A DNA stretch of 64,000 nucleotides from Candidatus Kerfeldbacteria bacterium (GTDB lineage Bacteria; Patescibacteriota; Patescibacteriia; SBBC01): positions 15,461 through 79,460 of the forward strand of contig JAZDNT010000003.1 of assembly GCA_043799405.1 (NCBI GenBank). Direction: 5' to 3'. Below the pieces are notes generated by a model. It was not told where the DNA came from. It was given only the letters and a program-made list of their open reading frames with translations, and did not search any database. Each line of letters starts with the position of its first letter. Position 1 is the first letter of the stretch. Made by a program: the position numbers and the translations under genes. Shown in pieces: positions 3,660-55,476 of the stretch.

Positions 3660-4943
3660 TCATGGGATAGTAAGCCACGTTGTATCCTGCCGTACGAGGA
3701 GCTCTTCTGCCCGTTCAGGGTCTGCCATAAGCTCCTTGACTGCTTTTTCCATCCGAGCGATCTGTGATCCTTTGATGAGCGCAGTGTCGCCCGGCGTAAA
3801 TCGATCGTGCACTAACTTCGCGGCTGATACGGGATCATCGAACGAGAATATGTGATCTTCGTCCATGCCAGCCTTTCGTGCCTCACTTGCTGCGTGCTTC
3901 ATTGCTTCGCCGACGCCGACGAACACGTCAATGCAGTTTTCAACGACTTTACGGCCGATCTCGCGGTGCGCCGGTTCGGTCGACGCTCCGAGGTCCGCCA
4001 TTTCACCAAGCAGCGCATAGCGCTTCCCTTCGGCTGGGAACGATCTGAGCGTCTCGAGCGCGGCAGTGCACGCGTCAGGCGACGAATTGTATGAGTCGTC
4101 GATGAGCGTCGTGTTCTTCACGCCAGACAACACGCGCATACGGCCCGGAGGCGGCGTATAGCGCGAGAGCGCGGCAACGATGTCAGGAAAGTCCATGTGG
4201 AACGCAATGCCAACAGCAATACCGGCGAGCGCGGCATACGCAGAATGTATTCCAACGACGCCGGGTATGAAGACTGAAACAGTCTCGCGGTTGAACAATA
4301 CCTTGATCATCAATCCGTGCTCGCCGGAGTCGCCCTTCACAACGGCCGCATCGATACAGCGGACGGCAACGCCGCCTGAAAAGCCGAAACTGATGACCGA
4401 TGCAGGCGATACATCAGCGAGCGACCGGACGCGAGGATCATCCCCGTTGAGCACGATCCACCCGTCATGAGCTACCCTCGTTGCGATGAGTGATTTTTCG
4501 GCAAGAACGTTCTCGACCGATCCGAAGTGGTGGAGGTGGGTCGGACCGACGCTTGTGATCACGCCGACGGAAAGCGGAACGATACCGAGGATCGCTTCAA
4601 TGTCGCCAGGCTTATCCGCACCCATCTCAAGAACGAGTACCGGGGGGTAGGGCTTATGAGAAACAAGGTACTGTGCCCCGTGCCAGAGAGAAACGGCAAC
4701 GCGTCTCCATCCCGGAACACCCTTTGCCGTCGGAGCGCCAAGCACGGTAAACGGAACGCCGAATTCATTATTGAAGCTTCCTGCGCTCGACTGAATGTCG
4801 TAGATGTGCGAGAGCACTACCGCAATAGCCTCCTTCGCGCTCGTCTTTCCGTAGGAACCGGTGATACCGACGACGTGCGGGTGGTAGCGCCTGACGACGC
4901 GTCGCGCGAAGAAGGTGAGCAGTGCCTGCGCTATGCGTTTCAT
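3660..4943 (-). CDS. murF: UDP-N-acetylmuramoyl-tripeptide--D-alanyl-D-alanine ligase
   Basis: Mur ligase P-loop GITGSYGKTSAKE plus the NNEFGVP motif typical of MurF. Lies in the dcw-type cluster. Confidence 0.88.
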   Translation of the reverse strand: MKRIAQALLTFFARRVVRRYHPHVVGITGSYGKTSAKEAIAVVLSHIYDIQSSAGSFNNEFGVPFTVLGAPTAKGVPGWRRVAVSLWHGAQYLVSHKPYPPVLVLEMGADKPGDIEAILGIVPLSVGVITSVGPTHLHHFGSVENVLAEKSLIATRVAHDGWIVLNGDDPRVRSLADVSPASVISFGFSGGVAVRCIDAAVVKGDSGEHGLMIKVLFNRETVSVFIPGVVGIHSAYAALAGIAVGIAFHMDFPDIVAALSRYTPPPGRMRVLSGVKNTTLIDDSYNSSPDACTAALETLRSFPAEGKRYALLGEMADLGASTEPAHREIGRKVVENCIDVFVGVGEAMKHAASEARKAGMDEDHIFSFDDPVSAAKLVHDRFTPGDTALIKGSQIARMEKAVKELMADPERAEELLVRQDTTWLTIP

Positions 4944-4978: not shown

Positions 4979-6739
4979 TTACGGTATTGCGTCTTCCGTT
5001 ACGGTCGGCGGAACTTCTAGGTAGTGGAGGATGAAGTTCGCAATCTCGCCGAACAATGGCGCAGCGGACGACTCAGCGAACTGCACGTCGCGCGGCCTGT
5101 CGATCCGTACGACCATGACGAACCTCGGATTCTCGACAGGTCCGAAGCCGGCGAACGTCCCGATCGTGACATCATCCTGGTATCCTGGGCTGTCAGTACG
5201 GGGAACCTGTGCAGTACCGGTCTTACCCGCAATGTAGTACCCGGGAACTCCCGCGCGCGTGCCGTGACCATTCTTGACGACGTTCACGAGCATCGCCCCG
5301 ATCGTCGTTGCGGTCTGCGGGCTTATTGCTTGCCGAACGGTCGTCGGCTGCGTCGTCGTTGTTGTCCCGTCGGGATGCCGCAGTTCCTTTACGATGTACG
5401 GTTTCATGAGTATACCGCGGTTAGCGATCGCAGCAAAAGCCGAAGCGAGCTGGAGCGGCGTTACCGTAATGCCCTGGCCGTACGACGCCGTCGCTGCGTA
5501 GATCTCCTTGCCTGCTTTCAATGTCGATGTGTCCCCGGCTGACTCGCCCTGAAGCTCTATCCTGGTCTTAACCCCGAAACCGAACTTATCGAGGTACGAC
5601 GCGAACGTCTTCGGCCCGATCTGCCGCATCGCGAAGATCGCGCCGGTGTTCAACGACTGCTCAAGGACCTGCGTCATAGTATTCACACCGTGCGCCTTTC
5701 CGTCCGAGTTCTTTATCGTGTAGCTCCCGATCTTCACGAACCCCTCGTCCGTGTAGGTCGTATTCGGCGAGACCTTCCCCTGATCGACAGAGGCCGACAT
5801 CGTAACACCCTTCATGACCGATCCCGGTTCGTACTGATTGAAGATCGCAGGATTCGCGTACACCTTAACGTCCTCCTCATCGGCGTACTCGTTCGGATCG
5901 AAGTCAGGGCTCCCGCACATCGCGAGGATTGCTCCGGTCGACGGCTCGAGGACCACGACGCTCCCTCCGTCGGCGCCGTGCTTCTGCACTGCCTCATCGA
6001 GCTTGACGCACGCCTCGTGCTCAATCGAGCGATCGATGGTCAGGACGATGTCATCGCCGTTCTCAGCAGGAACGAGCGACCGCGCACCGATCGCGATCCA
6101 CCGGCCGGCCGCATCCTTCTCCGCCGAAAGCGCCCCCTGCTTTCCGGTGAGCTTCGTATCGAACGATCCCTCGATTCCGTACTGCCCTTTGCGAAGGTCG
6201 CCGTCGAAACCGAGGAATCCGACGATATGGCTGCCGTAGCGTCCTTCAGGGTACATGCGGACCGACTCATCGACGAACTCGATCCCGGAAAACTGCAACG
6301 CCCGTATCGCGTCGACGTCGGTCTTCCGTACCGCATGCTTCAGCGGTTCGTACAGATCGTCCTGCTTCGCAATGCGTTCGTAGATGACGCCTGGGTCCAT
6401 GTCGAGGATCGGTGAAAGTTCCCGCGCAATTTCTTCAGGATCATTCTTAATCTTCGAAGGGTTCGCGAAGACGAGCGACAGCGGCTCATTGGTCGCGAGC
6501 GGGAACAGCTGAGAGCTCCCCTTCTCGGTCATGTAGATCTTGCCGCGTTCGGGGAACAGCTTCTGGTACAGGCTGTGCTGCCCCTCTGCGAGCGCCTTAT
6601 AGAATCCGTACTGAAGCACCTGTAATGAAAAAAGGCGCAGTATGATAACTACGACGAATATGCCTGCCAATCCGGCTAAGATGCGCGTTCTGTCTCCAGA
6701 ACCGCGTGCCCGTGGCGAGCGTGGGGAGCGAACCGGCAT
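4979..6739 (-). CDS. ftsI: class B penicillin-binding protein (FtsI/PBP2-type transpeptidase)
   Basis: N-terminal membrane anchor. Transpeptidase motifs SVMK (SxxK), SLN (SxN) and KTGTA (KTG). Sits between ftsL-like and murF. Confidence 0.88.
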   Translation of the reverse strand: MPVRSPRSPRARGSGDRTRILAGLAGIFVVVIILRLFSLQVLQYGFYKALAEGQHSLYQKLFPERGKIYMTEKGSSQLFPLATNEPLSLVFANPSKIKNDPEEIARELSPILDMDPGVIYERIAKQDDLYEPLKHAVRKTDVDAIRALQFSGIEFVDESVRMYPEGRYGSHIVGFLGFDGDLRKGQYGIEGSFDTKLTGKQGALSAEKDAAGRWIAIGARSLVPAENGDDIVLTIDRSIEHEACVKLDEAVQKHGADGGSVVVLEPSTGAILAMCGSPDFDPNEYADEEDVKVYANPAIFNQYEPGSVMKGVTMSASVDQGKVSPNTTYTDEGFVKIGSYTIKNSDGKAHGVNTMTQVLEQSLNTGAIFAMRQIGPKTFASYLDKFGFGVKTRIELQGESAGDTSTLKAGKEIYAATASYGQGITVTPLQLASAFAAIANRGILMKPYIVKELRHPDGTTTTTQPTTVRQAISPQTATTIGAMLVNVVKNGHGTRAGVPGYYIAGKTGTAQVPRTDSPGYQDDVTIGTFAGFGPVENPRFVMVVRIDRPRDVQFAESSAAPLFGEIANFILHYLEVPPTVTEDAIP

Positions 6740-10579: not shown

Positions 10580-10655
10580 GCGTGCAGTATAGCAGAAATG
10601 ATGCACCCCGCGCCGTGTAAGAAAACCGACGCGGGGTTGTTGCTCCAAACGGTAC

Positions 10656-12374: not shown

Positions 12375-12580
12375 ATTCCTCCTTACGATAACGACGAATG
12401 ATACCTCAACACTACGTTCGAAGTACAGCTTTTGTCAACTGATAAAAAGAGTCCCCGCGCCGGATTCTAAAACGAGTTCAGGAGAACCGACGCGGGGCTG
12501 ACGCTGCATGGCACTGGGCACGATGTCCTCGTGGTTCAATGCTGGCAGTAGTGACAGCTAGAGTGCGTCACGATACGACG

Positions 12581-15196: not shown

Positions 15197-16606
15197 TTAC
15201 TCGTATATTAAAAGAGGCTCTCTAACGGGGTCAATCCCTGTAATATCCCACCCAACGGTCTTCCGGTAACCGATGCGGTCAGGCACATGGTGCCCGGCGA
15301 GCCCGAGCATGCTGCCCGGCACGATCACATACTCGCCGTAACGATCATTTATCTCATCCAAGGCCTTCTGCAATCCATAGTCTTTTGGCCCTGCCCCGCA
15401 CCGCTCCGAGCTTAGCGAGGAGCTGGTGCGGGGTTTCCCGAACAGCGACAGCTGCCGCGACACTGGTGCCAAGTCAAACGTGTACACCGCAAAGAAGCTC
15501 GGAATGCCGGTCATATGCTCCCGCCTAAAAATGTCGAGTGCCGTCCGGAACAGCACGCGCGTGTCCGCGGTTCTGTCAGGCAAGCGCACTGACTCTCCAA
15601 AAAAATCCGTCCGAGGGCTGCGGGTCTCGCGGGACCCGAGACCGAGGACACCTTCGGAAACGGGAGGCGTGGGAAGGGAGAAACCGCCAGCATTAGCGGG
15701 GTTTCTCTCTCCCAGTATTCCGAGCGTCGTCCCGAACCCGCACCACAGCGCGCCCGCTTCCATATCCAAACTCCGCAACCGCCTGCCGGTCTTTTCGCAG
15801 AGCTTTAAAAGTACGGCTTCATGGAACCGTTGGTCGTTCGTCCGCCTCCGCAGCACGTGGCTGTGCCCCACGGACTTCGGCGGACGAGGCGTCTGCACGC
15901 GCGACAACTCGATCGCATTGAGATTTGCCCAGAGCTCGTACCCGCGCATGCCGAACGACTGAATAAGGTTTGCGACGGGGTAGCGCTTGAGCTCCAATAG
16001 ATCCCGGATACCGAGGTCCATGAGTTTCGCTGCGGTCCGGTCCGCAATGCCCCAGGCCTCGGTAAGCTCGCGGCCCGTAAGGTACGCGTCGAGCATATCC
16101 GCAGTCAAAACCACTAATCCGCCCTTCTCACACGTGTCAGCGCCGAACTTCGCGAGCCATCTCGTCGCGGCAATCCCCATAGAACAGGTCAGCCACTCCC
16201 CGACCTCGCCCAAGATCCGCTGCTTGATCCGCCGCCCCAGTTCTGATGCGGCATCAAAATCAGCGACGAACCCGGTCAGGTTCACGAACGCCTCATCAAT
16301 CGAGTACGGCTCGATGTCCTCGGAGTATTCGGCGAGTATCGAAAAGATCTTCTCCGTCGTTGACCGATACTTCGGCGGGTCCACCTCCACCAAGATGACG
16401 TTCGGATCGATGGCGCGCGCATCTTGCACGCGGCAACCGACCTTGATGCCCTCTTTCTTCGCTTCCTTTGACGAAGCAATAATGCAGCCGTTCCGCGTCA
16501 TCGTCGCGCACACACCAAGCGGTTTTCCACGATAGAACGGATTCGCCTGCTGTTCTACCGAAGCGAAGTAACTGTTCATATCTAGGTGGAGAATTATTCT
16601 CTGCAT
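15197..16606 (-). CDS. dinB: Y-family DNA polymerase IV with an internal ~40-aa insertion
   Basis: MQRIILHLDMNSYFASVEQ..., YSIDEAFVNLTG catalytic motif, and HhH thumb. 469 aa, longer than I would expect for DinB. The extra segment is LGILGERNPANAGGFSLPTPPVSEGVLGLGSRETRSPRTDFF in the little-finger region. Confidence 0.88.
   Translation of the reverse strand: MQRIILHLDMNSYFASVEQQANPFYRGKPLGVCATMTRNGCIIASSKEAKKEGIKVGCRVQDARAIDPNVILVEVDPPKYRSTTEKIFSILAEYSEDIEPYSIDEAFVNLTGFVADFDAASELGRRIKQRILGEVGEWLTCSMGIAATRWLAKFGADTCEKGGLVVLTADMLDAYLTGRELTEAWGIADRTAAKLMDLGIRDLLELKRYPVANLIQSFGMRGYELWANLNAIELSRVQTPRPPKSVGHSHVLRRRTNDQRFHEAVLLKLCEKTGRRLRSLDMEAGALWCGFGTTLGILGERNPANAGGFSLPTPPVSEGVLGLGSRETRSPRTDFFGESVRLPDRTADTRVLFRTALDIFRREHMTGIPSFFAVYTFDLAPVSRQLSLFGKPRTSSSLSSERCGAGPKDYGLQKALDEINDRYGEYVIVPGSMLGLAGHHVPDRIGYRKTVGWDITGIDPVREPLLIYE
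15623..15713. repeat. GC-rich palindromic element lying in frame inside dinB
   Basis: GGTCTCG-CGGGACC-CGAGACC (15623-15643) and GGGAAGGGAGAAACCGCC-AGCATTA-GCGGGGTTTCTCTCTCCC (15671-15713). The second part resembles the intergenic repeat at 7161-7199 and 19876-19918. Confidence 0.55.
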
Positions 16607-18526: not shown

Positions 18527-19504
18527 TTACAACCGTATCTCCTTCTCCAACCACGGAATATGCTCGTGCTTCCTGCGCCAGAATACATCCTCCCAGATGT
18601 AATGAACTGCCAGCATGGCGTATTTCCCATAACACCACTTGATGTCCCTGCTGATCTTTTGTACCGGCACCAAACGTTTTCCATAAAACAGGCGCGAGTA
18701 GATCTTCTGCTGCCACGGCGTAATATGATCGAACGTACCGTCGTGATGCAGCGCCTCAAACAGCAGAATACGAGCGGTTTCCGGACCAACGCCGTACAGT
18801 GCCATCAGCGTCTGTTTCGCTGCTTCTTCCGTTGCACTTCGCAACGCAATCTCGTCAACGGTTTTTTCCACAAAATCCCGCGACAGCCGTTTCAGAAACT
18901 TTGCGCGGTAGCCGATCTTCAGTGCTCGCAAATCATCCTCCGATACATGACGCAATCTCTCCGGCAACCATATCGCATGCAACGTCTTACCGCCGAATGC
19001 AACGGTCATCCCGAACTTTTTCAGCAACGCATCGAGCATCTGGCTGCTCCTGCGTACGGTCGCGTTCTGCAACACAAGACCGACAACCAAAAGTTCATAT
19101 AAATTGAACTGGGCGGCGTTCCGCATGCCAGTCCATTTCCTGAACACCGGAAAGAACCGTCGATCTCGCCTCGCCAACGCATTAAACTCATGAAGGTCCT
19201 TGTCCAGCTCGAAACGGTACGCAATTTCATTCCGCACCGGCTCCAGTTCTTTCGCGGCAAGGGGTTTCCGGGAAAACACGGAAACCTGCATACTCGGCTT
19301 TCGCTGCGTTCCCATGTTCACGAAGATCAGGCCGTAGAGCCGTTCCCCCATGCGCAGCGTCTGCCAGTACTTCCCCGGAATCCAATCTTCGAGTTTCAAC
19401 ATATTGAGAAAATGCGACGGCTTATGGAACGTACCGTCAAAATGAAACGGCGGCTTCGGGTACAAGGTGAATGATGTTCGATGTGCTAGTTTTATAATCG
19501 TCAA
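18527..19504 (-). CDS. HhH-GPD superfamily DNA glycosylase (AlkA/3-methyladenine glycosylase II-like)
   Basis: LVVGLVLQNATVRRSSQMLDALLKKFG and the HhH motif LMALYGVGPETARILLF. N-terminal FTLYPKPPFHFDGTF is typical of this family. Apparent TTG start. Confidence 0.78.
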   Translation of the reverse strand: MTIIKLAHRTSFTLYPKPPFHFDGTFHKPSHFLNMLKLEDWIPGKYWQTLRMGERLYGLIFVNMGTQRKPSMQVSVFSRKPLAAKELEPVRNEIAYRFELDKDLHEFNALARRDRRFFPVFRKWTGMRNAAQFNLYELLVVGLVLQNATVRRSSQMLDALLKKFGMTVAFGGKTLHAIWLPERLRHVSEDDLRALKIGYRAKFLKRLSRDFVEKTVDEIALRSATEEAAKQTLMALYGVGPETARILLFEALHHDGTFDHITPWQQKIYSRLFYGKRLVPVQKISRDIKWCYGKYAMLAVHYIWEDVFWRRKHEHIPWLEKEIRL

Positions 19505-19526
19505 AAGTCAAATGTTACGTGTTTTC

Positions 19527-19775
19527 TCATACCCCACTCACCTCTTCCAACGTCCACACCAACGATTCCGGATCGTACACGAGCACAAAACTATTTCCCT
19601 CGTCCGACACGGCAAAGCACCACACGAACCGCTTACCCACGCGTTTCCGGTACACCAGGTTCACGCGCTGCACCTCGTACTTCCTCCCGGCACGCACGAA
19701 CGCGATCGGCCGAACCTGGCTGCCGTTGAAATCCGCGAACACCCGAACGTTTTCGTGCACTTTCTCAGTTTCCAT
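19527..19775 (-). CDS. small conserved-looking protein (82 aa), function unknown, upstream of the glycosylase
   Basis: Start moved to METEKVHENVRVFADFNG; the upstream part of the 143-aa track ORF runs through a repeat element. It lies 22 nt upstream of the glycosylase start and diverges from lexA. Confidence 0.5.
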   Translation of the reverse strand: METEKVHENVRVFADFNGSQVRPIAFVRAGRKYEVQRVNLVYRKRVGKRFVWCFAVSDEGNSFVLVYDPESLVWTLEEVSGV

Positions 19776-19875
19776 AATGTTCTCAACGTATTCCGTTGCG
19801 CCGCAGCGGCGAGGATCAGGGTGGCGGGCTTTGCCCGACGGGACCCTAGCCGAGACGCAAGGCGCGACACCATAG

Positions 19876-19918
19876 TAGGGAAGGAGTGGTATCGGACGAG
19901 GAAACCGCAGGTTGCCTC
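19876..19918 (+). repeat. GC-rich dispersed repeat, copy 2
   Basis: TAGGGAAGGAGTGGTATCGGACGAGGAAACCGCAGGTTGCCTC aligns with 7161-7199. Confidence 0.6.
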
Positions 19919-20036
19919 GCCGAATTTTGACCCGAATAAAACCCGAAGTTATCCACACCGTACCACTCGCCTGCGGCTCGTGTACGGTGCAGGCGCGTTA
20001 TTTCCTTTAAAAAGGGCTTATCTTAGGATACTTGAC

Positions 20037-20052
20037 TTCGGTTTTTCTTCGG
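20037..20052 (+). promoter_or_regulatory. TTCGGTTTTTCTTCGG 16-mer upstream of lexA (candidate operator/promoter element)
   Basis: Exact copy of 20845-20860. Preceded by TTGACT and followed by TATACC. Internally a direct repeat, TTCG-N7-TTCG. Confidence 0.45.
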
Positions 20053-20168
20053 TATACCCTTACAGTATCGCGATAACGGACTGGGGTCAAGAGCCAAAAG
20101 AGCGCGGACGAGGAAACTCCCAAACTCAAGCTCTTCCTCCCCTTCCACCATTCATTAGAGGAGGCACT

Positions 20169-20801
20169 ATGGCGCCAGTACTACCACGTCAGAAGCAAAA
20201 AATCCTTCAGTATCTGAAGGACTACATCGGTTTGCATGATTATGCGCCGACGCTTACCGAGATCGCAAAGGAGTTCAATCTTTCGTCGCTCGCGACAGTA
20301 CATGAACACCTCGGCTTTCTCGAGGATCGCGGGTTTATCCGGCGTATTGCCGGCGAGGACCGCGGTATTAAAATCATAGAACGAAAAGCTGATGAACCCG
20401 AGGGAGACTGGAAACCAAGCGTTTTACTTCCGCTTGTCGGTGTCATAACCGCTGGCAAGCCCATTGAAGCAGTTGAGCGGCCTGATGAAACAATCGCTGT
20501 TCCCGAGGAGATCGTACGGAGGAAGAACGCCTACGTTCTTAAGGTTCGCGGTGATTCCATGATCGAAAGCTTGATCGCTGATGGCGACTACGTCGTTGTC
20601 GAGAAGACGGACTATGCGCGTGACGGGGACATGGTTGTTGCCATGCTCGATGACGGAACTGCGACGCTTAAGAAGATCTTCCGAAAGAAAAACTTTGTCC
20701 GCCTGCAGCCGGCGAACAGAGCATATAGGCCGATCGATGTGCCGAACGTTATTGTACAGGGTAAGGTGCTCGGCGTACTGCGTTCTTATCAGCCGGTGTA
20801 A
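20169..20801 (+). CDS. lexA: LexA repressor
   Basis: Start moved to GGAGGCACT-ATG (MAPVLPRQKQKILQYLKDYIGLHDYAPTLTEIAKEF wHTH). Cleavage-site-like ITAGKP. Ser/Lys dyad context RGDSM ... LKK. Confidence 0.9.
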   Translation: MAPVLPRQKQKILQYLKDYIGLHDYAPTLTEIAKEFNLSSLATVHEHLGFLEDRGFIRRIAGEDRGIKIIERKADEPEGDWKPSVLLPLVGVITAGKPIEAVERPDETIAVPEEIVRRKNAYVLKVRGDSMIESLIADGDYVVVEKTDYARDGDMVVAMLDDGTATLKKIFRKKNFVRLQPANRAYRPIDVPNVIVQGKVLGVLRSYQPV

Positions 20802-20864: not shown

Positions 20865-21476
20865 ATGAACATACTACGAAACATCATCGCGATCCAAACC
20901 GAGCGCCGAACTGATCTTGGCCCGGCTCTCCCCTACCTGTCACGTATCGGGGTGCTTGAAGTACGAAGCACATCTATCATTGTCGATGCTGGTCCTGATA
21001 TTGGAATGAAACGGCTTCGCAAAAAGCTGATCATGCTTCGAAGCGCTCTTCACGTTATACTCGGCAATCCAGTACGGATCGGTGCGGGATCGGGTACAGT
21101 TGTCAGTCTTGTTGCAGCTAAAAGATCAATGCCCGGAGGTATTACCATTGTACCGCCAGGCAATGAACCATCGTTCCTCGACCGAACGGCCATTGACCTC
21201 CTCCCCGGTATCGGGCGGAGGACAGCGACATATCTAAGAAATCGTGGTGTACGGACGATCGGACAATTTAATAAACTTTCACAGTATGCTGCGGTCAAAC
21301 TTTTCGGAATATCCGGTATCGTTTTACACGACTACAGCCGTGGTAATGATCCGCGCGAAATCATCGCTATAGGTAACAGTGAGCCTGATGTATCTGGACG
21401 ACAATCGCTCTTTTCGGTCTTTTCAAAAAAGCATCATCCTGCCTTAGGTGTTGCAGCAGGCATGGATATTGCTTGA
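20865..21476 (+). pseudogene. truncated, catalytically degenerate Y-family polymerase fragment (palm end + thumb only)
   Basis: VRIGAGSGTVVSLVAAKRSMPGGITIVPPGNEPSFLDRTAIDLLPGIGRRTATYLRNRGVRTIGQF matches the DinB palm/thumb HhH region. The SIDEAF position reads RSTSIIVDAG (acidic residues lost). No N-terminal catalytic region or little finger. Start codon uncertain. Confidence 0.5.
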
Positions 21477-51563: not shown

Positions 51564-52262
51564 CTACTTTCCCCCGAACCGCCGCTCGCGCCGAGAATAT
51601 TCAGCGAGCGCCTCATCAAAATCTTTCGGAGTAAAGTCTGGCCAGAGCTTTGGCGAAAACACGAACTCGCTGTATTCAGCCTGCCATGCCATGAATCCCG
51701 AAAGCCGCATTTCCCCGCTCGTACGGATAATGAGCTCGGGATCGGGTATATCCGGCTGATACAGGTGTTTCGAGATGAGCGAGGTATCGATACGGTCAGG
51801 ATCCGGTTTCGACCGTACGATCGCACGGATAGCATCGACGAGTTCGGTCCGTCCTCCGTAGTTTAAGAGCACGTTGAGAACGCCCCCCGTATTCTGTCGT
51901 GTGAGATTCATTGCGTCCGCAACGAGATTCTGCAACCTCGTAGACAGCTCATGGATCCTGCCGGTAACGACGAGCCTTACGTTCTTCCGATGGAAATCCG
52001 CGACCTCCTCGCGAAGCACCCACTCAAGAAGGCGCATGAGGTACTGGACCTCGCGCTTCGCTCGCTTCCAGTTCTCGGTCGAAAAAGCCCAGACGCTTAG
52101 GTACTTCACGCCACGGTCGAGCGCCGCGTCGCCGATCCTCTTCAAGGTCTGGTAACCGATGCGATGACCTTCGAGCGCGGGTTTTCCGTGCTTCCGTGCC
52201 CAGCGACGGTTACCATCCATGATGATGGCGACGTGCTTCGGCACGGTATGAACTGATGACAT
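51564..52262 (-). CDS. uppS: undecaprenyl-diphosphate synthase (cis-isoprenyl transferase)
   Basis: Start moved to MSSVHTVPKHVAIIMDGNRRWA. The upstream part of the track ORF is translation across tRNA sequence. Confidence 0.9.
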   Translation of the reverse strand: MSSVHTVPKHVAIIMDGNRRWARKHGKPALEGHRIGYQTLKRIGDAALDRGVKYLSVWAFSTENWKRAKREVQYLMRLLEWVLREEVADFHRKNVRLVVTGRIHELSTRLQNLVADAMNLTRQNTGGVLNVLLNYGGRTELVDAIRAIVRSKPDPDRIDTSLISKHLYQPDIPDPELIIRTSGEMRLSGFMAWQAEYSEFVFSPKLWPDFTPKDFDEALAEYSRRERRFGGK

Positions 52263-52285
52263 ATGGATAGTATACACCTTTCGTT

Positions 52286-52340
52286 TGGTCGGGGTACCGG
52301 GACTCGAACCCGGGACCTCAGTTCCCCCGCACCACAATTG
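52286..52340 (-). pseudogene. tRNA-Pro-like 3' half, copy a (ends in CCA) with GTGGTGCGGGG helper strand
   Basis: Minus strand reads CAATTGTGGTGCGGGGGAACTGAGGTC CCGGG TTCGAGT CCCGG TACCCCG A CCA. Confidence 0.6.
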
Positions 52341-52367
52341 ACTGCTAAATGTCTTACTCACGCTTCC

Positions 52368-52423
52368 TGTCGGGGTACCGGGACTCGAACCCGGGACCTC
52401 AGTTCCCCCGCACCACAATTTTG
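52368..52423 (-). pseudogene. tRNA-Pro-like 3' half, copy b (ends ACA), contiguous with the trailer of inner tRNA-Pro
   Basis: Same 50 nt as copy a. Preceded by ACAAAATTGTGGTGCGGGG, which pairs with the leader at 52496-52514. Confidence 0.6.
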
Positions 52424-52495
52424 TCGGGGATGCGAGATTTGAACTCGCGACCTCTCGGTCCCGAACCGAGCGCGCTACCACTGCGCCAATCCCCG
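52424..52495 (-). tRNA. tRNA-Pro(CGG), complete cloverleaf, no encoded CCA
   Basis: CGGGGAT TG GCGC AGTGGTA GCGC G CTCGG TTCGGGA CCGAG AGGTC GCGAG TTCAAAT CTCGC ATCCCCG A. Confidence 0.85.
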
Positions 52496-52518
52496 ACAAA
52501 ATTGTGGTGCGGGGCGGG

Positions 52519-52576
52519 CCGAACCGTGCGCGCGGACTTTATCCCGCCGTATGGCGGGGAACTGCGCTATACCCCG
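52519..52576 (-). pseudogene. tRNA-Pro-like 5' portion (acceptor, D arm carrying a CCCCGCC-ATAC-GGCGGG hairpin, anticodon stem 5' strand and TTCGG)
   Basis: CGGGGTA TA GCGC AGTT CCCCGCCATACGGCGGG ATAAAGTCC GCGC G CACGG TTCGG, then CCCGCCCCGCACCAC.... The acceptor matches the 3' halves, but the 3' halves lack CCGTG to pair with CACGG. Confidence 0.5.
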
Positions 52577-52667
52577 AAGCAATACGTGGATTGTGAATTT
52601 ACGGCGCCCTGCCAACGGAGTTTATCCCGAGCTACCGCGAGGGACCATGCCCCGATGGTATCTAGTC

Positions 52668-52913
52668 TGGCAGGGGTGCCAGGGCTCGAACCTGGAATAA
52701 CGGTTTTGCCTGCCCGCCGTACGGAGGTATTTTTTAATGTGTACTGTATCAATGTCATTAATTGGCAGGGGCGGAAGGTGTCGCACCCTCATTACCGGTT
52801 TTGGAGACCGGTGTTCTACTGCTGAACTACGCCCCCATCAACTAACGACAGATTGTTTTCTCCGTACTCCGGCAGGCGGGGAGACCGTTGTGATACCGTT
52901 TCACTACACCCCC
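52668..52913 (-). tRNA. interrupted tRNA-Trp(CCA) (outer gene): exons 52881-52913 and 52668-52708 separated by a 172-nt insertion
   Basis: Joined exons give GGGGGTG TA GTGA AACGGTA TCAC A ACGGT CTC|CAAA ACCGT TATT CCAGG TTCGAGC CCTGG CACCCCT G CCA, a canonical cloverleaf. The insertion sits at anticodon position 34/35 (or 35/36 by sliding). Confidence 0.6.
52763..52836 (-). tRNA. tRNA-Trp(CCA) (inner gene) with a non-canonical elbow
   Basis: GGGGGCG TA GTTC AGCAGTA GAAC A CCGGT CTCCAAA ACCGG TAAT GAGGG TGCGACA CCTTC CGCCCCT G CCA. The D loop lacks GG, and the T loop has G where U55 is expected. Confidence 0.75.
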
Positions 52914-53002
52914 ATCAAAACTGGTGCTGGATTGAAAACTATTCCTGCCCGGCGAAGCCGGGTCCGGCTCTGCCGGAAACGACGCTCCCGCGATTGTAGC
53001 TC

Positions 53003-53164
53003 TCATTTCAATTTCGCTTCTTTATGGAGCGTATGTTTCTTGCACCACTTGCAATACTTCTTCAGTTCGATCTTCACCTTGACCTTTTTCTTGTTACGTC
53101 TCGAAAAGTAATTGACGTGCTTGCACACACCGCATGAGAGACCGATAAGATTGTCTTGGGACAT
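53003..53164 (-). CDS. rpmG: 50S ribosomal protein L33 (53 aa, zinc-ribbon type)
   Basis: Own translation: MSQDNLIGLSCGVCKHVNYFSRRNKKKVKVKIELKKYCKWCKKHTLHKEAKLK. Below the ORF-track size cutoff. Confidence 0.85.
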   Translation of the reverse strand: MSQDNLIGLSCGVCKHVNYFSRRNKKKVKVKIELKKYCKWCKKHTLHKEAKLK

Positions 53165-53198
53165 AAGGAATGGTTAATTAGGAATTGTGTTCGTTCAG

Positions 53199-53570
53199 TT
53201 AATTAAGGTGGCGGGCTTTGGCAAGATACTTAATATATGCATTGAGTCCGATCAATAGGCCTTCGTACTCGTGATCAAATGAATTGAATTCTTCTTCAGG
53301 CAGATACCCCAGACCCTCGGCAACTTTTAGATGACTTCTTGTTTCAAACACCTCGCCACGAGATTGGTAGAGAACTCGAATTTTATCGTTAAATGAATGC
53401 CTTCCCTGGCTTTCAGCGATATTCGCGATAATGGCATTAGCCGACCGTCTTAGCTGATCTATCAGACCATATCGTTCAGATGTTGGAAAGCGCTCAGTTA
53501 TCCGATAGACGTTGAGAACGAGCGTATATCCGTTCTTCCAGATATCGAGTTGATAGAATGATTGTGGCAT
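53199..53570 (-). CDS. four-helix-bundle protein of the 23S rRNA intervening-sequence (IVS) protein family
   Basis: MPQSFYQLDIWKNGYTLVLNVYRITERFPTSERYGLIDQLRRSANAIIANIAESQGR... is the typical signature of this family. Confidence 0.8.
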   Translation of the reverse strand: MPQSFYQLDIWKNGYTLVLNVYRITERFPTSERYGLIDQLRRSANAIIANIAESQGRHSFNDKIRVLYQSRGEVFETRSHLKVAEGLGYLPEEEFNSFDHEYEGLLIGLNAYIKYLAKARHLN

Positions 53571-53638
53571 AACTTTTCTTTCTTGCCACCAATCTTTAGT
53601 TTCTTAATTAACTTAATTAACTATTATCTTCCTGCTGA

Positions 53639-53869
53639 AGCCGGTGGTCGGATTTGAACCGACGACCTACTGTTTATCCCGATGTTCTCAAAATCTTGCC
53701 GGTGGAGCCGGAGAGCGGATTCGAACCGCTGACCTGCTGTTTACAAAACAGCTGCTCTACCGCTGAGCTACTCCGGCAAGATTTTGTAAGAACATCGAGG
53801 ATCCCGCGTACTATACCTTATTTATCGGAGCGGGACAAAACAGTTGCTCTACCACTGAGCTACACCGGC
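53639..53869 (-). tRNA. interrupted tRNA-Thr(UGU) (outer gene): exons 53835-53869 and 53639-53675 separated by a 159-nt insertion; no CCA
   Basis: Joined exons give GCCGGTG TA GCTC AGTGGTA GAGC A ACTGT TTTGT|AA ACAGT AGGTC GTCGG TTCAAAT CCGAC CACCGGC T. Confidence 0.6.
53703..53777 (-). tRNA. tRNA-Thr(UGU) (inner gene), CCA encoded
   Basis: GCCGGAG TA GCTC AGCGGTA GAGC A GCTGT TTTGTAA ACAGC AGGTC AGCGG TTCGAAT CCGCT CTCCGGC T CCA. Confidence 0.9.
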
Positions 53870-53906
53870 GTGGCGGACGCGTCCGAACATCGGACAATCC
53901 TCTGCT

Positions 53907-53935
53907 TGTATACCATTTTTCCGGTGCATCTTCAA
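53907..53935 (-). promoter_or_regulatory. candidate promoter for the Thr(UGU) unit (TTGAAG-17-TATACA)
   Basis: On the minus strand, TTGAAG at 53935-53930 and TATACA at 53912-53907, about 35 nt upstream of the outer tRNA 5' end. Confidence 0.4.
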
Positions 53936-53965
53936 CAGTCGCAGAATGATGAGAAGGGTTATTAC

Positions 53966-54273
53966 TGGTGGGCAGGGTAGGATTTCTCACCCCGCACCAC
54001 TTTCTTTCGTGCACTGGTGGGTGGAGTAGGATTCGAACCTACGAAGGCCGGAGGCCACCTGATTTACAGTCAGGTCCGTTTGACCGCTTCGGTATCCACC
54101 CTGGCCTTAGAAATTCTCCATCATGGTTGTGAAAGAAAGTGGTGCGGGGCGGGCCTACGAAGGCCGGAGGTCACCTGATTTATGCCGCCGTTGGCGGCAT
54201 CCCGCCTTCCTTAGATTGCTTGAGGAATTGTGGCGGGACAGTCAGGCCCGTTTGACCGCTTCGGTACCTGCCC
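53966..54273 (-). tRNA. interrupted tRNA-Tyr(GUA)-like (outer gene) in three pieces: 54238-54273, 54154-54181, 53966-53989
   Basis: GGGCAGG TA CCGA AGCGGTCAAA CGGG CCTGA CTGT | 56-nt insertion | AAA TCAGG TGACCTCCGGCCTTC GTAGG | 164-nt insertion containing the inner tRNA-Tyr | TGAGAAAT CCTAC CCTGCCC A CCA. The resulting T loop is non-canonical. Confidence 0.45.
54015..54101 (-). tRNA. tRNA-Tyr(GUA) (inner gene), long variable arm, CCA encoded
   Basis: GGGTGGA TA CCGA AGCGGTCAAA CGGA CCTGA CTGTAAA TCAGG TGGCCTCCGGCCTTC GTAGG TTCGAAT CCTAC TCCACCC A CCA. Confidence 0.88.
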
Positions 54274-54274
54274 A

Positions 54275-54527
54275 TGGAGCCGATGCGCGGATTTGAACCG
54301 CGGACCTACTTGCCCAGCATCCAATGTGATACTGGGCTACTTACCCCCGTATTACGCCCGCGTCAAGTGCGGTCGTACGCGGGGCAAGCATGGAGTTGCG
54401 TCATTCACCCCGCCGCTTCTGGAGCCGATGCGCGGATTTGAACCGCGGACCTACTCCTTACCATGGAGTTGCTCTACCAACTGAGCTACATCGGCAGAAG
54501 CGGCGGGGCCAACTGAGCTACATCGGC
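54275..54527 (-). pseudogene. degenerate outer tRNA-Thr-like gene enclosing inner tRNA-Thr(GGU)
   Basis: 5' piece GCCGATG TA GCTC AGTTGG (54509-54527) and 3' piece AGGTC CGCGG TTCAAAT CCGCG CATCGGC T CCA (54275-54309) are identical to the inner gene. The middle keeps GC A ACTCC ATG, but I cannot reconstruct a D-stem 3' strand or an anticodon-stem 3' strand. Confidence 0.4.
54420..54495 (-). tRNA. tRNA-Thr(GGU) (inner gene), CCA encoded
   Basis: GCCGATG TA GCTC AGTTGGTA GAGC A ACTCC ATGGTAA GGAGT AGGTC CGCGG TTCAAAT CCGCG CATCGGC T CCA. Confidence 0.9.
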
Positions 54528-54552
54528 GAATAGTGTGTCTATTGTATACGTG

Positions 54553-55476
54553 CTACGCCCGTCGATGAACGTTGGTCAACATCGTATCGATCCGAGAGGT
54601 GAATTCGGCGAGTTTTTGGTTTTCCGGATTTACCGATCGGAGCTTTTCGAGCGTTTCGAGCGCCCACTCTCGTTTTCCGGCGACGATGCTCGCCTCGACG
54701 AGCGCGTCGAGGAACTTCGGGTTGTTCGGTTCGAGTTCCACCGTCCGCCTGCTGCTCTCAAACGCCCCGATACTATCACCGAGGGCAAGCTGAACCCTCG
54801 AGAGATCGAGGTAGTGCTGCGCAACGTGGCCGTTGATCACGATCGACTTCTCGAAATCACGGCGTGCTTCATCATATTTCCCTTCTCCTGAAGCGACGAG
54901 TCCGAGCTCCGCGTATAGTTCATCATCCTCTACCTTGAGACGCTGAATGACGAACTGCAGCGTTTCGCGGGCATGTTCATAATCCTTCTGTTCGATGTAT
55001 ATTAATGCGAGCTGTCGGTATGCAGAAACGCTCCGTGGGTCGATGCTGATCGCAGCGATCGTCCGCTGTTCCGCTGCTGAAAGGTCGCCTGCCGTCATTG
55101 AGCTTCTCGCGTCATCGAGGAGCTGTTCTATCTTCTGTACTTTCTCTGCTTTCGCTTCCGGCGTCAGGACTTCTTCCTGCAACGTTCGTGCACGGTATCG
55201 CTTTTCAAGTTCAAGGAGTTTCTGGTACTGTGACCGTAAGAACCTTCCTGCCGACGATGCAACAGGCCGAAGCGCCTTGCCGGTCGTTCTCGTAACATTG
55301 GATAACTTCCTCCGGAAACGTTGTTCAATGAGTTTTGATTTCAGCTCATCGTGCTGCTCTGCAGGAATGCTCTTCGTATCAATGACCGCAAGTTTCGGGA
55401 ACTTACGAACGACAATGACGATAATCATTACAAGCGCACTGACCGCGAGGATGGCAACGATGATATCAATCAACAT
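54553..55476 (-). CDS. membrane-anchored TPR-repeat protein
   Basis: N-terminal TM MLIDIIVAILAVSALVMIIVIVV. C-terminal TPR-like repeats (AYRQLALIYIEQKDYEHARETLQ...). Confidence 0.72.
   Translation of the reverse strand: MLIDIIVAILAVSALVMIIVIVVRKFPKLAVIDTKSIPAEQHDELKSKLIEQRFRRKLSNVTRTTGKALRPVASSAGRFLRSQYQKLLELEKRYRARTLQEEVLTPEAKAEKVQKIEQLLDDARSSMTAGDLSAAEQRTIAAISIDPRSVSAYRQLALIYIEQKDYEHARETLQFVIQRLKVEDDELYAELGLVASGEGKYDEARRDFEKSIVINGHVAQHYLDLSRVQLALGDSIGAFESSRRTVELEPNNPKFLDALVEASIVAGKREWALETLEKLRSVNPENQKLAEFTSRIDTMLTNVHRRA

Follow-up and report, generated by a model that had tools for sequence, protein, structure and literature searches.

What are the GC-rich segments that separate each tRNA gene of a Candidatus Kerfeldbacteria cluster from the pieces of a second tRNA gene lying around it, and how did they come to be there? 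The cluster is located on the minus strand of contig JAZDNT010000003.1, between a TPR gene (54553-55476) and uppS (51564-52262), in a stretch of 64 kb which was analysed as a whole and is called the window here; the domain and motif scans covered these 64 kb of the genome. The answer that we consider probable, though well short of certain, is that these CCCGC...GCGGG segments form a family of GC-clamped palindromic mobile insertions without open reading frames (ORFs), distributed in Kerfeldbacteria and in some other lineages of the Candidate Phyla Radiation (CPR). Small members of this family would be bare hairpins, and the larger ones, the cassettes, would consist of a complete tRNA gene between two arms. 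Such a cassette would enter the loop of a resident tRNA gene of the same identity and destroy it, the cargo tRNA would take over the function, and the split halves of the old gene would decay as relics.

Only five intact tRNAs were recognised by ARAGORN and Rfam in the 64 kb, all within the cluster and on the minus strand: tRNA-Thr(GGU) at 54495-54420, tRNA-Tyr at 54101-54015, tRNA-Thr(UGU) at 53777-53703, tRNA-Trp at 52836-52763 and tRNA-Pro(CGG) at 52495-52422. All five are nested: each is enclosed by two complementary arms, and outside the arms stand a 5' and a 3' piece of another tRNA whose anticodon is identical; these pieces were recovered when each tRNA was compared by BLAST with the sequence flanking it. 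The initial annotation had described interrupted tRNAs over 52406-54237. Its sequence features all hold once they are read on the minus strand, where the junction strings were verified, and the nests are present in that range, but a third layer of the Pro nest had been missed and the feature extends down to 52285.

The nests are given here in the order in which they are read on the minus strand, to which all their coordinates refer. In the Thr-GGU nest (54275..54527) the outer 5' piece (54527-54509) is followed by the left arm CCCCGCCGCTTCT (54508-54496), the inner gene, the right arm GAAGCGGCGGGG (54419-54408), a degenerate outer middle (54407-54389), two cargo-less hairpins in the outer copy (54388-54344 and 54336-54313) and the outer 3' piece (54309-54275); the outer pieces, 19 nt on the 5' and 36 nt on the 3' side in the BLAST comparison, are 100% identical to the inner copy. 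The Tyr nest (53966..54273) is composed of an outer 5' part (54273-54238), a cargo-less two-hairpin insertion in the anticodon loop (54237-54182), the outer middle (54181-54154), a left arm starting with CCCGCCCCGCACCACTTTCTTTC (54153-54102), the inner gene, a right arm ending in GAAAGAAAGTGGTGCGGGG (54014-53990) and the outer 3' end (53989-53966). The Thr-UGU nest (53636..53869) has an outer 5' half at 53869-53835 and an outer 3' half at 53675-53636; what we call cassette A is inserted exactly between T36 and A37, its left part (53834-53778) being a CCCGC...GCGGGAT hairpin followed by the arm CCTCGATGTTCTTACAAAATCTT, and its right arm being CCGGCAAGATTTTGAGAACATCGGGAT (53702-53676). In the Trp nest (52668..52913) the outer 5' part (52913-52881) and 3' part (52708-52668) flank a left arm at 52880-52837 and a right arm at 52762-52709 which ends in GGCGGGCAGG; here the inner, functional tRNA has an odd T loop (TGCGACA, no TTC) and a D loop without GG, whereas the displaced outer copy is canonical. 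The Pro nest (52285..52654) has three layers, which were assigned by comparison with the Pro nest of a related contig, L081. The outermost layer is a 5' relic at 52654-52616 and a 3' half at 52324-52288, followed by CCA to 52285, and is accompanied by the older right arm CAATTGTGGTGCGGGG (52340-52325). The middle copy is found as 5' parts at 52576-52560 and 52540-52519, split by the D-loop hairpin CCCCGCCATACGGCGGGAT (52559-52541), and as a 3' half at 52405-52369; the inner arms are CCCGCCCCGCACCACAATTTTGT (52518-52496) and its right partner at 52421-52406.

The insertions start with CCCGC or CCCCGC in every case and end with GCGGG plus 0-5 nt, so the conserved starts and complementary GC-rich ends noted initially are true of all of them. 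Among the 26 junctions compared, the left ones read GTTGG/CCCCGCCGC, CTGT/CCCGCCAC, GTAGG/CCCGCCCCGCACCAC, TTTGT/CCCGCTCCG, CTC/CCCGCCTGCC, AGTT/CCCCGCCATAC and TTCGG/CCCGCCCCGCACCAC, while on the right the outer sequence resumes after GCGGCGGGG, GGCGGCAT, GGTGCGGGG, CGGGAT or GGCGGGCAGG. The 15-mer CCCGCCCCGCACCAC is common to the Tyr T-loop and the Pro anticodon-loop insertions, in agreement with what had been reported; its partner GTGGTGCGGGG is present in 3 copies, the third preceding the extra Pro 3' half at 52340-52285, and GGGATAAA occurs 3 times in the 64 kb, always within the cluster. The insertions are 19-158 nt long and contain no ORF, their inverted-repeat arms measure 11-25 bp with conserved ends, and at least 11 copies are present in the cluster and one in dinB. 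They sit in the anticodon loop (34-37), at position 31/32, in the D loop or in the T loop, and some cassettes replace the whole anticodon arm.

Are these termini specific, or merely generic GC-rich palindromes? The motif CCCGCACC has 10 matches in the window against 2.2 expected from shuffles, and the 2.2-kb cluster holds 6 of the 10 (binomial P = 3e-7). Among other CPR loci, 386 kb in all, it has 33 matches, most of which (about 20 by position-by-position reading) are in tRNA nests. It is therefore concentrated at tRNA loop junctions, and the notion of ubiquitous palindromes is contradicted for this motif; generic CCCGC hairpins, on the other hand, do exist elsewhere in the window, one inside dinB and two terminator-like. 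The latter two, related hairpins of the form CCCCGCGTCGG...CGGCGCGGGG (10607-10635 and 12454-12496, minus strand), are located at gene ends, one of them being followed by a T run, and look like intrinsic terminators to judge by their sequence. The CCCGC clamp alone is thus not diagnostic, and it is the CCCGCACC type that is specific. At least three terminus types could be distinguished, namely CCCGCACC...GGTGCGGG(AT), CCCGCC...GGCGGG(AT) and those ending in GGCGGGCAGG, besides unrelated double hairpins. The idea of a single element family has to be given up for this reason, but related, hairpin-bounded elements with defined termini, rather than random rearrangement, remain the appropriate description, and cargo-less 'empty' members which are hairpins only were also found.

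Further double hairpins were observed beside the nests. One of 31 nt, TCCGGCAGAGCCGGACCCGGCTTCGCCGGGC, is located in the spacer between rpmG and the Trp nest (52947-52977, minus strand); it recurs at 28/31 identity in the T loop of a relic Thr-UGU in the related locus L195 (820-850) and in an intergenic region of L198 (about 3830-3860). A different one occupies the same T-loop position in two relic tRNAs of L085. By their sequence these T-loop double hairpins look like further hairpin families targeting T loops.

Evidence for mobility came from the comparison of the window with other contigs, which carry L numbers here. UppS and DinB of the window are 100% identical to proteins on a contig of a 'Candidatus Kerfeldbacteria' metagenome-assembled genome. 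The other Kerfeldbacteria contigs were reached through UppS homologues of 67-82% identity, and metagenome loci of other CPR lineages through a contig scan anchored on L33; in the GTDB species genomes scanned with UppS the matches had at most 52% identity and were without nests. The gene order rpsB-tsf-TPR-tRNAs-rpmG-tRNAs-uppS is shared between the orthologous loci, and occupancy varies. In L086 the same gene order contains five plain tRNAs, which represents the empty state; in L081 Thr-UGU and Trp are plain and Tyr and Pro are nested; in L083 and L084 all five are nested, and L085 and L195 are nested loci too. Cassette A is inserted at exactly TTTTGT/AAA in three different outer Thr-UGU alleles, and according to the alignment its arms are conserved, with one base pair changed on both sides (GATG with CATC versus GAAG with CTTC). 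These empty sites (L086; Thr-UGU and Trp of L081), the same-nucleotide insertion into three alleles, the nests of three to four layers and a dinB member absent from nine homologues favour the second of the two explanations offered at first for the termini, a processing signal or the ends of a mobile element.

The layers themselves would reflect successive replacements. Thr-UGU of L085 has three layers, in which a former inner copy and its old right arm are split by a newer cassette, TCCCGCACCATCCTGG-tRNA-CCAGGATGGTGCGGGAT, and its innermost tRNA shares 93% identity with the plain gene of L086, which is more distant; Thr-UGU of L195 has at least four layers, with cassettes alternating A, B, A. 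The outer Thr-UGU of the window is closer to the uninterrupted gene of L081 (92% identity) than to its own inner copy (85%). For two Pro alleles, 'GTA' (acceptor CGGGGTA) and 'GAT' (CGGGGAT), the nesting order of the window is reversed in L081 while the CCCGCCCCGCACCACAAT arms stay the same, a reciprocal invasion of the two alleles. The outer Tyr gene of the window starts 1 nt past the CCA of the outer Thr-GGU, and the plain genes of L086 are 4 nt apart; the ancestral Thr-GGU/Tyr spacing is apparently kept by the outer copies of the window.

In the L33-anchored scan the tRNAs of other CPR lineages were mostly plain, and cassettes of this kind were also found in four more distant metagenome loci, namely L092 (Arg), L095 (Thr-UGU), L141 (Thr-GGU) and L153. 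In the last one a Trp cassette lies within a decayed copy and that copy within another; the cassette, including the odd T loop of the window tRNA-Trp, recurs there (1247-1320) with a tRNA of 95% identity. It should be asked at this point whether chimeric strain assembly or random tandem duplication and deletion could have created such structures, the hairpins being ordinary terminators. The sequences do come from metagenome-assembled genomes (MAGs), some CCCGC hairpins of the window are terminator-like, and the inner and outer Thr-GGU pieces are identical. The nested architecture, however, is present in at least seven independent assemblies (NCBI MAGs, Logan, JGI) from different samples, the termini are conserved and the junctions precise to the nucleotide, inner and outer copies differ by paired stem changes, unlike strain-level noise, and the arms are not followed by T runs. 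We regard an artefact or passive rearrangement as highly improbable.

How could a nest grow? The cargo would recreate an intact target, into which the next cassette would insert, and Russian-doll nests of two to four layers would arise. The cargo tRNA presumably replaces the function of the gene that it interrupts, and the nest is likely to be transcribed from the ancestral upstream promoter. A promoter-like TTGAAG-17-TATACA is located at 53935-53907 (minus strand), upstream of the outer Thr-UGU 5' half, and its counterpart in L081 (about 5005-5035; TTGAGA-17 nt-TATGGT, with the shared CCGGAAAnATGGTAT) precedes the plain Thr-UGU gene; the conservation of this counterpart suggests transcription of the nests from the ancestral promoter. 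The promoter and terminator scan of the tRNA cluster gave counts at the level of shuffled controls, and a -35/-10 match inside cassette A was discarded, not being conserved in L083 or L195. In the minimum free energy (MFE) folds the outer cloverleaf is kept and the insertion forms one long helix stacked on the inner acceptor stem, with predicted stems of 12-25 bp continuous with that stem. Judging from these models, the arms would insulate the inner tRNA from the near-identical relic halves, and the same helix might serve as a processing stem, cut by RNase III and then matured by RNase P and 3' trimming. The restriction to the same identity may reflect selection, since insertions of any other kind would kill a host that has one copy of the tRNA gene, or homology-assisted homing.

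The fate of the outer copies bears on both this mechanism and its most obvious competitor, namely that the insertions are true tRNA introns, cut out with rejoining of the exons, so that the outer tRNAs work. In such a case a protein machinery would recognise the CCCGC/GCGGG helix (e.g. an endonuclease or RNase III together with an RtcB-type ligase), and the inner tRNA would be an intron-encoded product. All insertions are indeed in cloverleaf loops or at helix ends, the termini are conserved between loci and genomes, the insertions share one orientation with respect to the sense strand, the outer cloverleaf survives in the folds with the insertion as an extra arm, and the Tyr anticodon-loop two-hairpin element is found at the same position in three lineages (the window, L085 and L133). 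After exact excision in silico, however, the picture is mixed. The outer Pro of the window needs a 1-nt boundary shift and shows an A:A mismatch, a 3-nt variable loop and no D-loop GG; in the outer Tyr an 8-nt T loop remains; the outer Thr-GGU does not become a clean tRNA, two further hairpins disrupting it. Altogether 5 of the 11 spliced outer copies are unrecognisable as tRNA and 2 more have aberrant anticodon loops, and the intron mode of ARAGORN detected no outer gene. Among the relatives the Trp outer copy of L083 is truncated in its 3' part and has lost the 3' strand of the anticodon stem and the T arm, the acceptor strands of its Pro outer copy no longer pair, and the outer copies of L141 and of L081 Tyr have no anticodon arm; these could not function.

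The innermost tRNA, in turn, is intact in every contig-covered nest except two relics, L085 Tyr, which is cut by the contig end, and L197 Pro; with an intact inner tRNA of the same anticodon splicing is unneeded, and no examined locus has an interrupted copy as its sole copy. All that is left of the nest in L197 (150-290, upstream of a NUDIX gene) is the 3' part of a Pro gene, the right arm TTGGTGCGGGA, and AGGTCG with a hairpin. As this locus has no tRNA according to ARAGORN, the working Pro gene must lie elsewhere in that genome. Because truncated or mismatched outer copies stand beside intact innermost tRNAs, we read the outer pieces, from their sequence, as the remains of displaced genes, and it is doubtful that they are exons of working outer genes, as had been assumed initially. 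A mobile element is thus favoured over true splicing, which we hold to be improbable.

The segments may also be compared with the known kinds of tRNA intron. Archaeal tRNA genes contain non-canonical introns, transpose introns in Thermoproteales and are in part split, with GC-rich complementary leaders (PMC4090602, PMC4033280). The nests resemble them in the D-, anticodon- and T-loop sites, in having several insertions per gene and related insertions in different tRNAs, and in the GC-rich complementary flanks; they differ in the bacterial host, the lack of a bulge-helix-bulge (BHB) motif, the decaying outer genes and the full tRNA of the same identity inside. The MFE folds, in place of a dedicated BHB search, predict no two 3-nt bulges 4 bp apart; they put the two junctions opposite one another, either on the two sides of an internal loop at the foot of one helix or at a three-way junction. 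No splicing endonuclease (EndA) or ligase domain was found among the about 45 ORFs of the window. In Patescibacteria tRNA genes are known to carry group I introns, with anticodon-loop sites including 35/36 (PMC13011429); phylum, kind of host gene and anticodon-loop sites are alike, but the present insertions are far shorter and are simple hairpins or hold a tRNA. A group I core was not detected, Rfam giving only the five tRNAs both for the window at the gathering threshold and for 52200-54600 at E <= 5, and the nests contain no ribozyme or known RNA family in Rfam. The U...G rule of group I introns also fails, since the left junctions follow T, C or G and the right ends are T or G (CGGGAT/, GGCAGG/); neither a group I nor a group II signal speaks for splicing. 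Two further ideas were dropped: CCCGCACCA as a tRNA 3' end, as several termini are ACCG, ACCT or ACGT, and an internal guide in cassette A (an 'ACAAAA' arm pairing with the TTTTGT exon end), as the Pro, Trp and Tyr cassettes have no similar feature.

A broader form of this explanation supposes that the segments are moved and/or removed at the RNA level, as a new class of bacterial tRNA introns cut and rejoined by protein at the CCCGC/GCGGG clamp. Reverse insertion into exposed tRNA loops would be the way in which such a class spreads, with a second tRNA as possible cargo. Three features would thereby be explained: all segments have the same sense orientation, only loops are targeted, and the outer Thr-UGU and Trp are still perfect. 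We give it little credence. If it were correct, the nests would be a bacterial analogue of the archaeal protein-dependent tRNA splicing, and if splicing took place at all, these would be the first bacterial tRNA introns belonging neither to group I nor to group II.

If mobile insertions are preferred, the mode of movement has to be considered. The mobiliser could be a trans-acting nuclease or transposase, or there could be an RNA or single-stranded-DNA intermediate. In a variant of the favoured explanation, which differs from it only in this respect, a trans-acting tRNA-gene-specific endonuclease cuts the uninterrupted gene, and the nested allele is copied in by double-strand-break repair, the insertion bringing adjacent exon sequence with it. 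The identical insertion nucleotide in different alleles fits this variant, and so does layer 1 of L195, which is chimeric, with a 5' half of the GCCAGCG type and a 3' half of the CATCGGC type, as expected from co-conversion. ORFs of 80-87 amino acids with GIY-YIG similarity adjoin tRNAs in L133 (651-890), L129 (1220-1456), L198 (1841-2104; this one recognised as GIY-YIG by Pfam), L107 and L108. A partial ORF upstream of tRNA-Tyr in L195 (2-142) resembles a GIY-YIG C-terminus by eye, although tblastn did not recover it. In L133 an older Tyr copy, which has the same anticodon-loop hairpins as the outer Tyr of the window, has received a duplicate of the unit of GIY-YIG gene and tRNA-Tyr together with the tail of the ORF. 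A precedent exists in T4 SegB, a GIY-YIG homing endonuclease located in a tRNA gene cluster (PMC2330249), which by analogy may be the nearest one for a selfish element tied to tRNA genes; the preferential inheritance of a tRNA region is shared with it, and insertions within insertions are shared with twintrons, but the cassettes contain no endonuclease gene and it is genes that are nested, not self-splicing introns. No GIY-YIG gene is present in the window, however, such short proteins without a DNA-binding domain are only putative nucleases, homing would spread existing nests and leave the first formation of a new layer unexplained, and for the dinB hairpin there is no homology to a tRNA by which repair could be guided. 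We therefore think this variant unlikely, with rather more to be said for it than for splicing, and the small GIY-YIG genes beside tRNA genes may be candidate nucleases, a lead rather than evidence.

The family is not confined to tRNA genes, and it is the insertions in dinB that speak for mobility at the DNA level. DinB (15197-16606, minus strand) has 469 amino acids as compared with 423-430 in close homologues, the difference being made up by insertions of 15 and 40 amino acids in and after the little-finger domain. One is a cargo-less element of 45 nt, CCCCGCACC...GGTGCGGGGCAGGG (15389-15433, minus strand), in frame and adding PRTSSSLSSERCGAG; the second is a hairpin-rich insertion of 120 nt (15599-15718, minus strand), also in frame. 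One of them has CCCCGCACC/GGTGCGGGG termini. Both are stop-free and absent from all 9 aligned DinB homologues of Kerfeldbacteria and CPR (the closest 84% identical). As a separate observation, a 203-amino-acid ORF with a fragment of a Y-family polymerase thumb domain (20865-21476, plus strand) holds CCCGCACC at 21081; it follows a LexA-like ORF of 444 amino acids (19467-20801, plus strand), whose LexA DNA-binding and S24 peptidase domains occupy residues 239-434 only.

Rickettsia palindromic elements (RPEs), repetitive extragenic palindromic sequences (REP/REPIN) and miniature inverted-repeat transposable elements (MITEs) are short, ORF-less palindromic repeats which are able to sit inside genes. 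The elements described here are likewise short, ORF-less, self-complementary and present in many copies, one of them within a gene (dinB), and they have conserved ends and a variable interior. The in-frame, stop-free dinB insertions missing from the orthologues resemble RPEs and by this analogy argue for DNA-level mobility, while terminal inverted repeats, absence of an ORF and multiple copies are traits of MITEs; a target-site duplication of fixed length is absent, and no cognate transposase with matching termini was found within the window. Unlike RPE and REP sequences, the present elements prefer tRNA-gene loops, some carry a complete tRNA gene, they nest recursively and have no regular target-site duplication; no RAYT-type (REP-associated tyrosine transposase) or other transposase was seen, and the likeness drawn here is one of description.

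Genomic islands and prophages whose integration site is a tRNA gene measure kilobases and encode an integrase; it is the 3' part of the gene alone that they replace, and direct repeats are left. A tRNA-gene target, often in the anticodon or T loop, the function-restoring sequence that is brought and the displaced piece that is left are common to them and to the cassettes, which differ in having no ORF, in carrying the whole tRNA, in being bounded by inverted repeats and in leaving both old halves. Integrase att sites were rejected on these grounds: the flanks are inverted rather than direct repeats, the two halves complete each other to one old gene instead of duplicating it, and no integrase is encoded in the window. 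Carriage by viruses was also considered, but TCCCGCACC N70-100 GGTGCGGGA gave 27 matches in IMG/VR, all of them in phage contigs rich in GC and none enclosing a tRNA, a result at the chance level.

Intervening sequences (IVS) of 23S rRNA are excised by RNase III, are often associated with a PF05635 ORF and leave rRNA fragments which still function. The likeness consists in a stem-bounded insertion in the loop of a structural RNA, the stems predicted here being long as in such sequences, and in a PF05635 gene in the same cluster; the difference is that a tRNA could not work once its anticodon loop had been cut, the function being supplied here by the cargo tRNA. That gene ('23S rRNA intervening sequence protein', 123 amino acids, E = 1e-30; 53199-53570, minus strand) lies between the Thr-UGU nest and rpmG (L33; 53164-53003, minus strand), which occupies the middle of the cluster, and it is flanked by an 11-bp inverted repeat, AGTTAATTAAG at 53622-53612 and CTTAATTAACT at 53207-53197. 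Exact-protein look-ups of its product and of the UppS of the window gave no match. The same spacer is about 30-60 nt long and without an ORF in L081, L083, L085, L086 and L195, and this suggests that the PF05635 ORF is itself an insertion. The cluster is otherwise surrounded by ordinary housekeeping genes (uppS, tsf, rpsB, rpmE, prfA and prmC), as read from translations and synteny, the TPR gene being identified by Pfam.

Several observations weigh against mobile insertions that replace the gene they destroy. Exact excision in silico turns the outer Thr-UGU and Trp of the window and the outer Thr-UGU of L083 into flawless tRNAs, for which splicing is conceivable, and the relics have been retained surprisingly long for such small genomes. 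In the loci examined there is one locus type per genome. No transposase, reverse transcriptase, nuclease or integrase domain was found among the about 45 ORFs of the window. The check for target-site duplications proposed at the outset revealed no consistent one; the comparisons of empty with filled sites and of the 26 junctions leave an ambiguity of 0-2 nt. A single sequence-specific transposase would not account for the target sequences, which vary from tRNA to tRNA. All elements have the same sense-strand orientation, including eight cargo-less hairpins ending in ...GGGAT, with which an RNA or single-strand intermediate agrees at least as well as a classical DNA transposon does; together with the restriction to cloverleaf loops this uniformity suggests a single-stranded DNA or RNA intermediate.

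A different tRNA-linked insertion was seen in L089, L094, L100, L112 and L134 (Trp), in L093 (Leu-CAA) and in L166. An insert of the L089 type consists of a complete tRNA followed by 130-350 nt with a conserved CGAAAGCCGGA...GAGGCGGGGTCG segment, ends in a duplicated stretch of 16-19 nt from the T loop to the 3' end, and has no Rfam match in its tRNA-adjacent part.

The recursive replacement of a gene by the cargo of the element that destroys it appears to be undescribed, while its components, palindromic insertions and target-restoring elements, are of known kinds. In our literature search no description came up, for CPR bacteria, of tRNA genes nested in one another or of hairpin cassettes that carry a tRNA, and for tRNA-gene insertions in Patescibacteria only group I introns are described (PMC13011429). 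The terminus motif (T)CCCGC[AC]CC...GG[GT]GCGGGA(T) can be used to search for the enzyme that recognises it, and the nests would account for tRNA-like fragments which confuse the annotation of such genomes. The in-frame copy in dinB suggests that the same family also remodels proteins. If our reading is true, a tiny element without any ORF invades essential single-copy tRNA genes without killing its host, by providing a working replacement; the nests would be a layered fossil record of successive invasions, and in CPR bacteria the alleles of tRNA genes would pass horizontally between genomes, with a rapid turnover.

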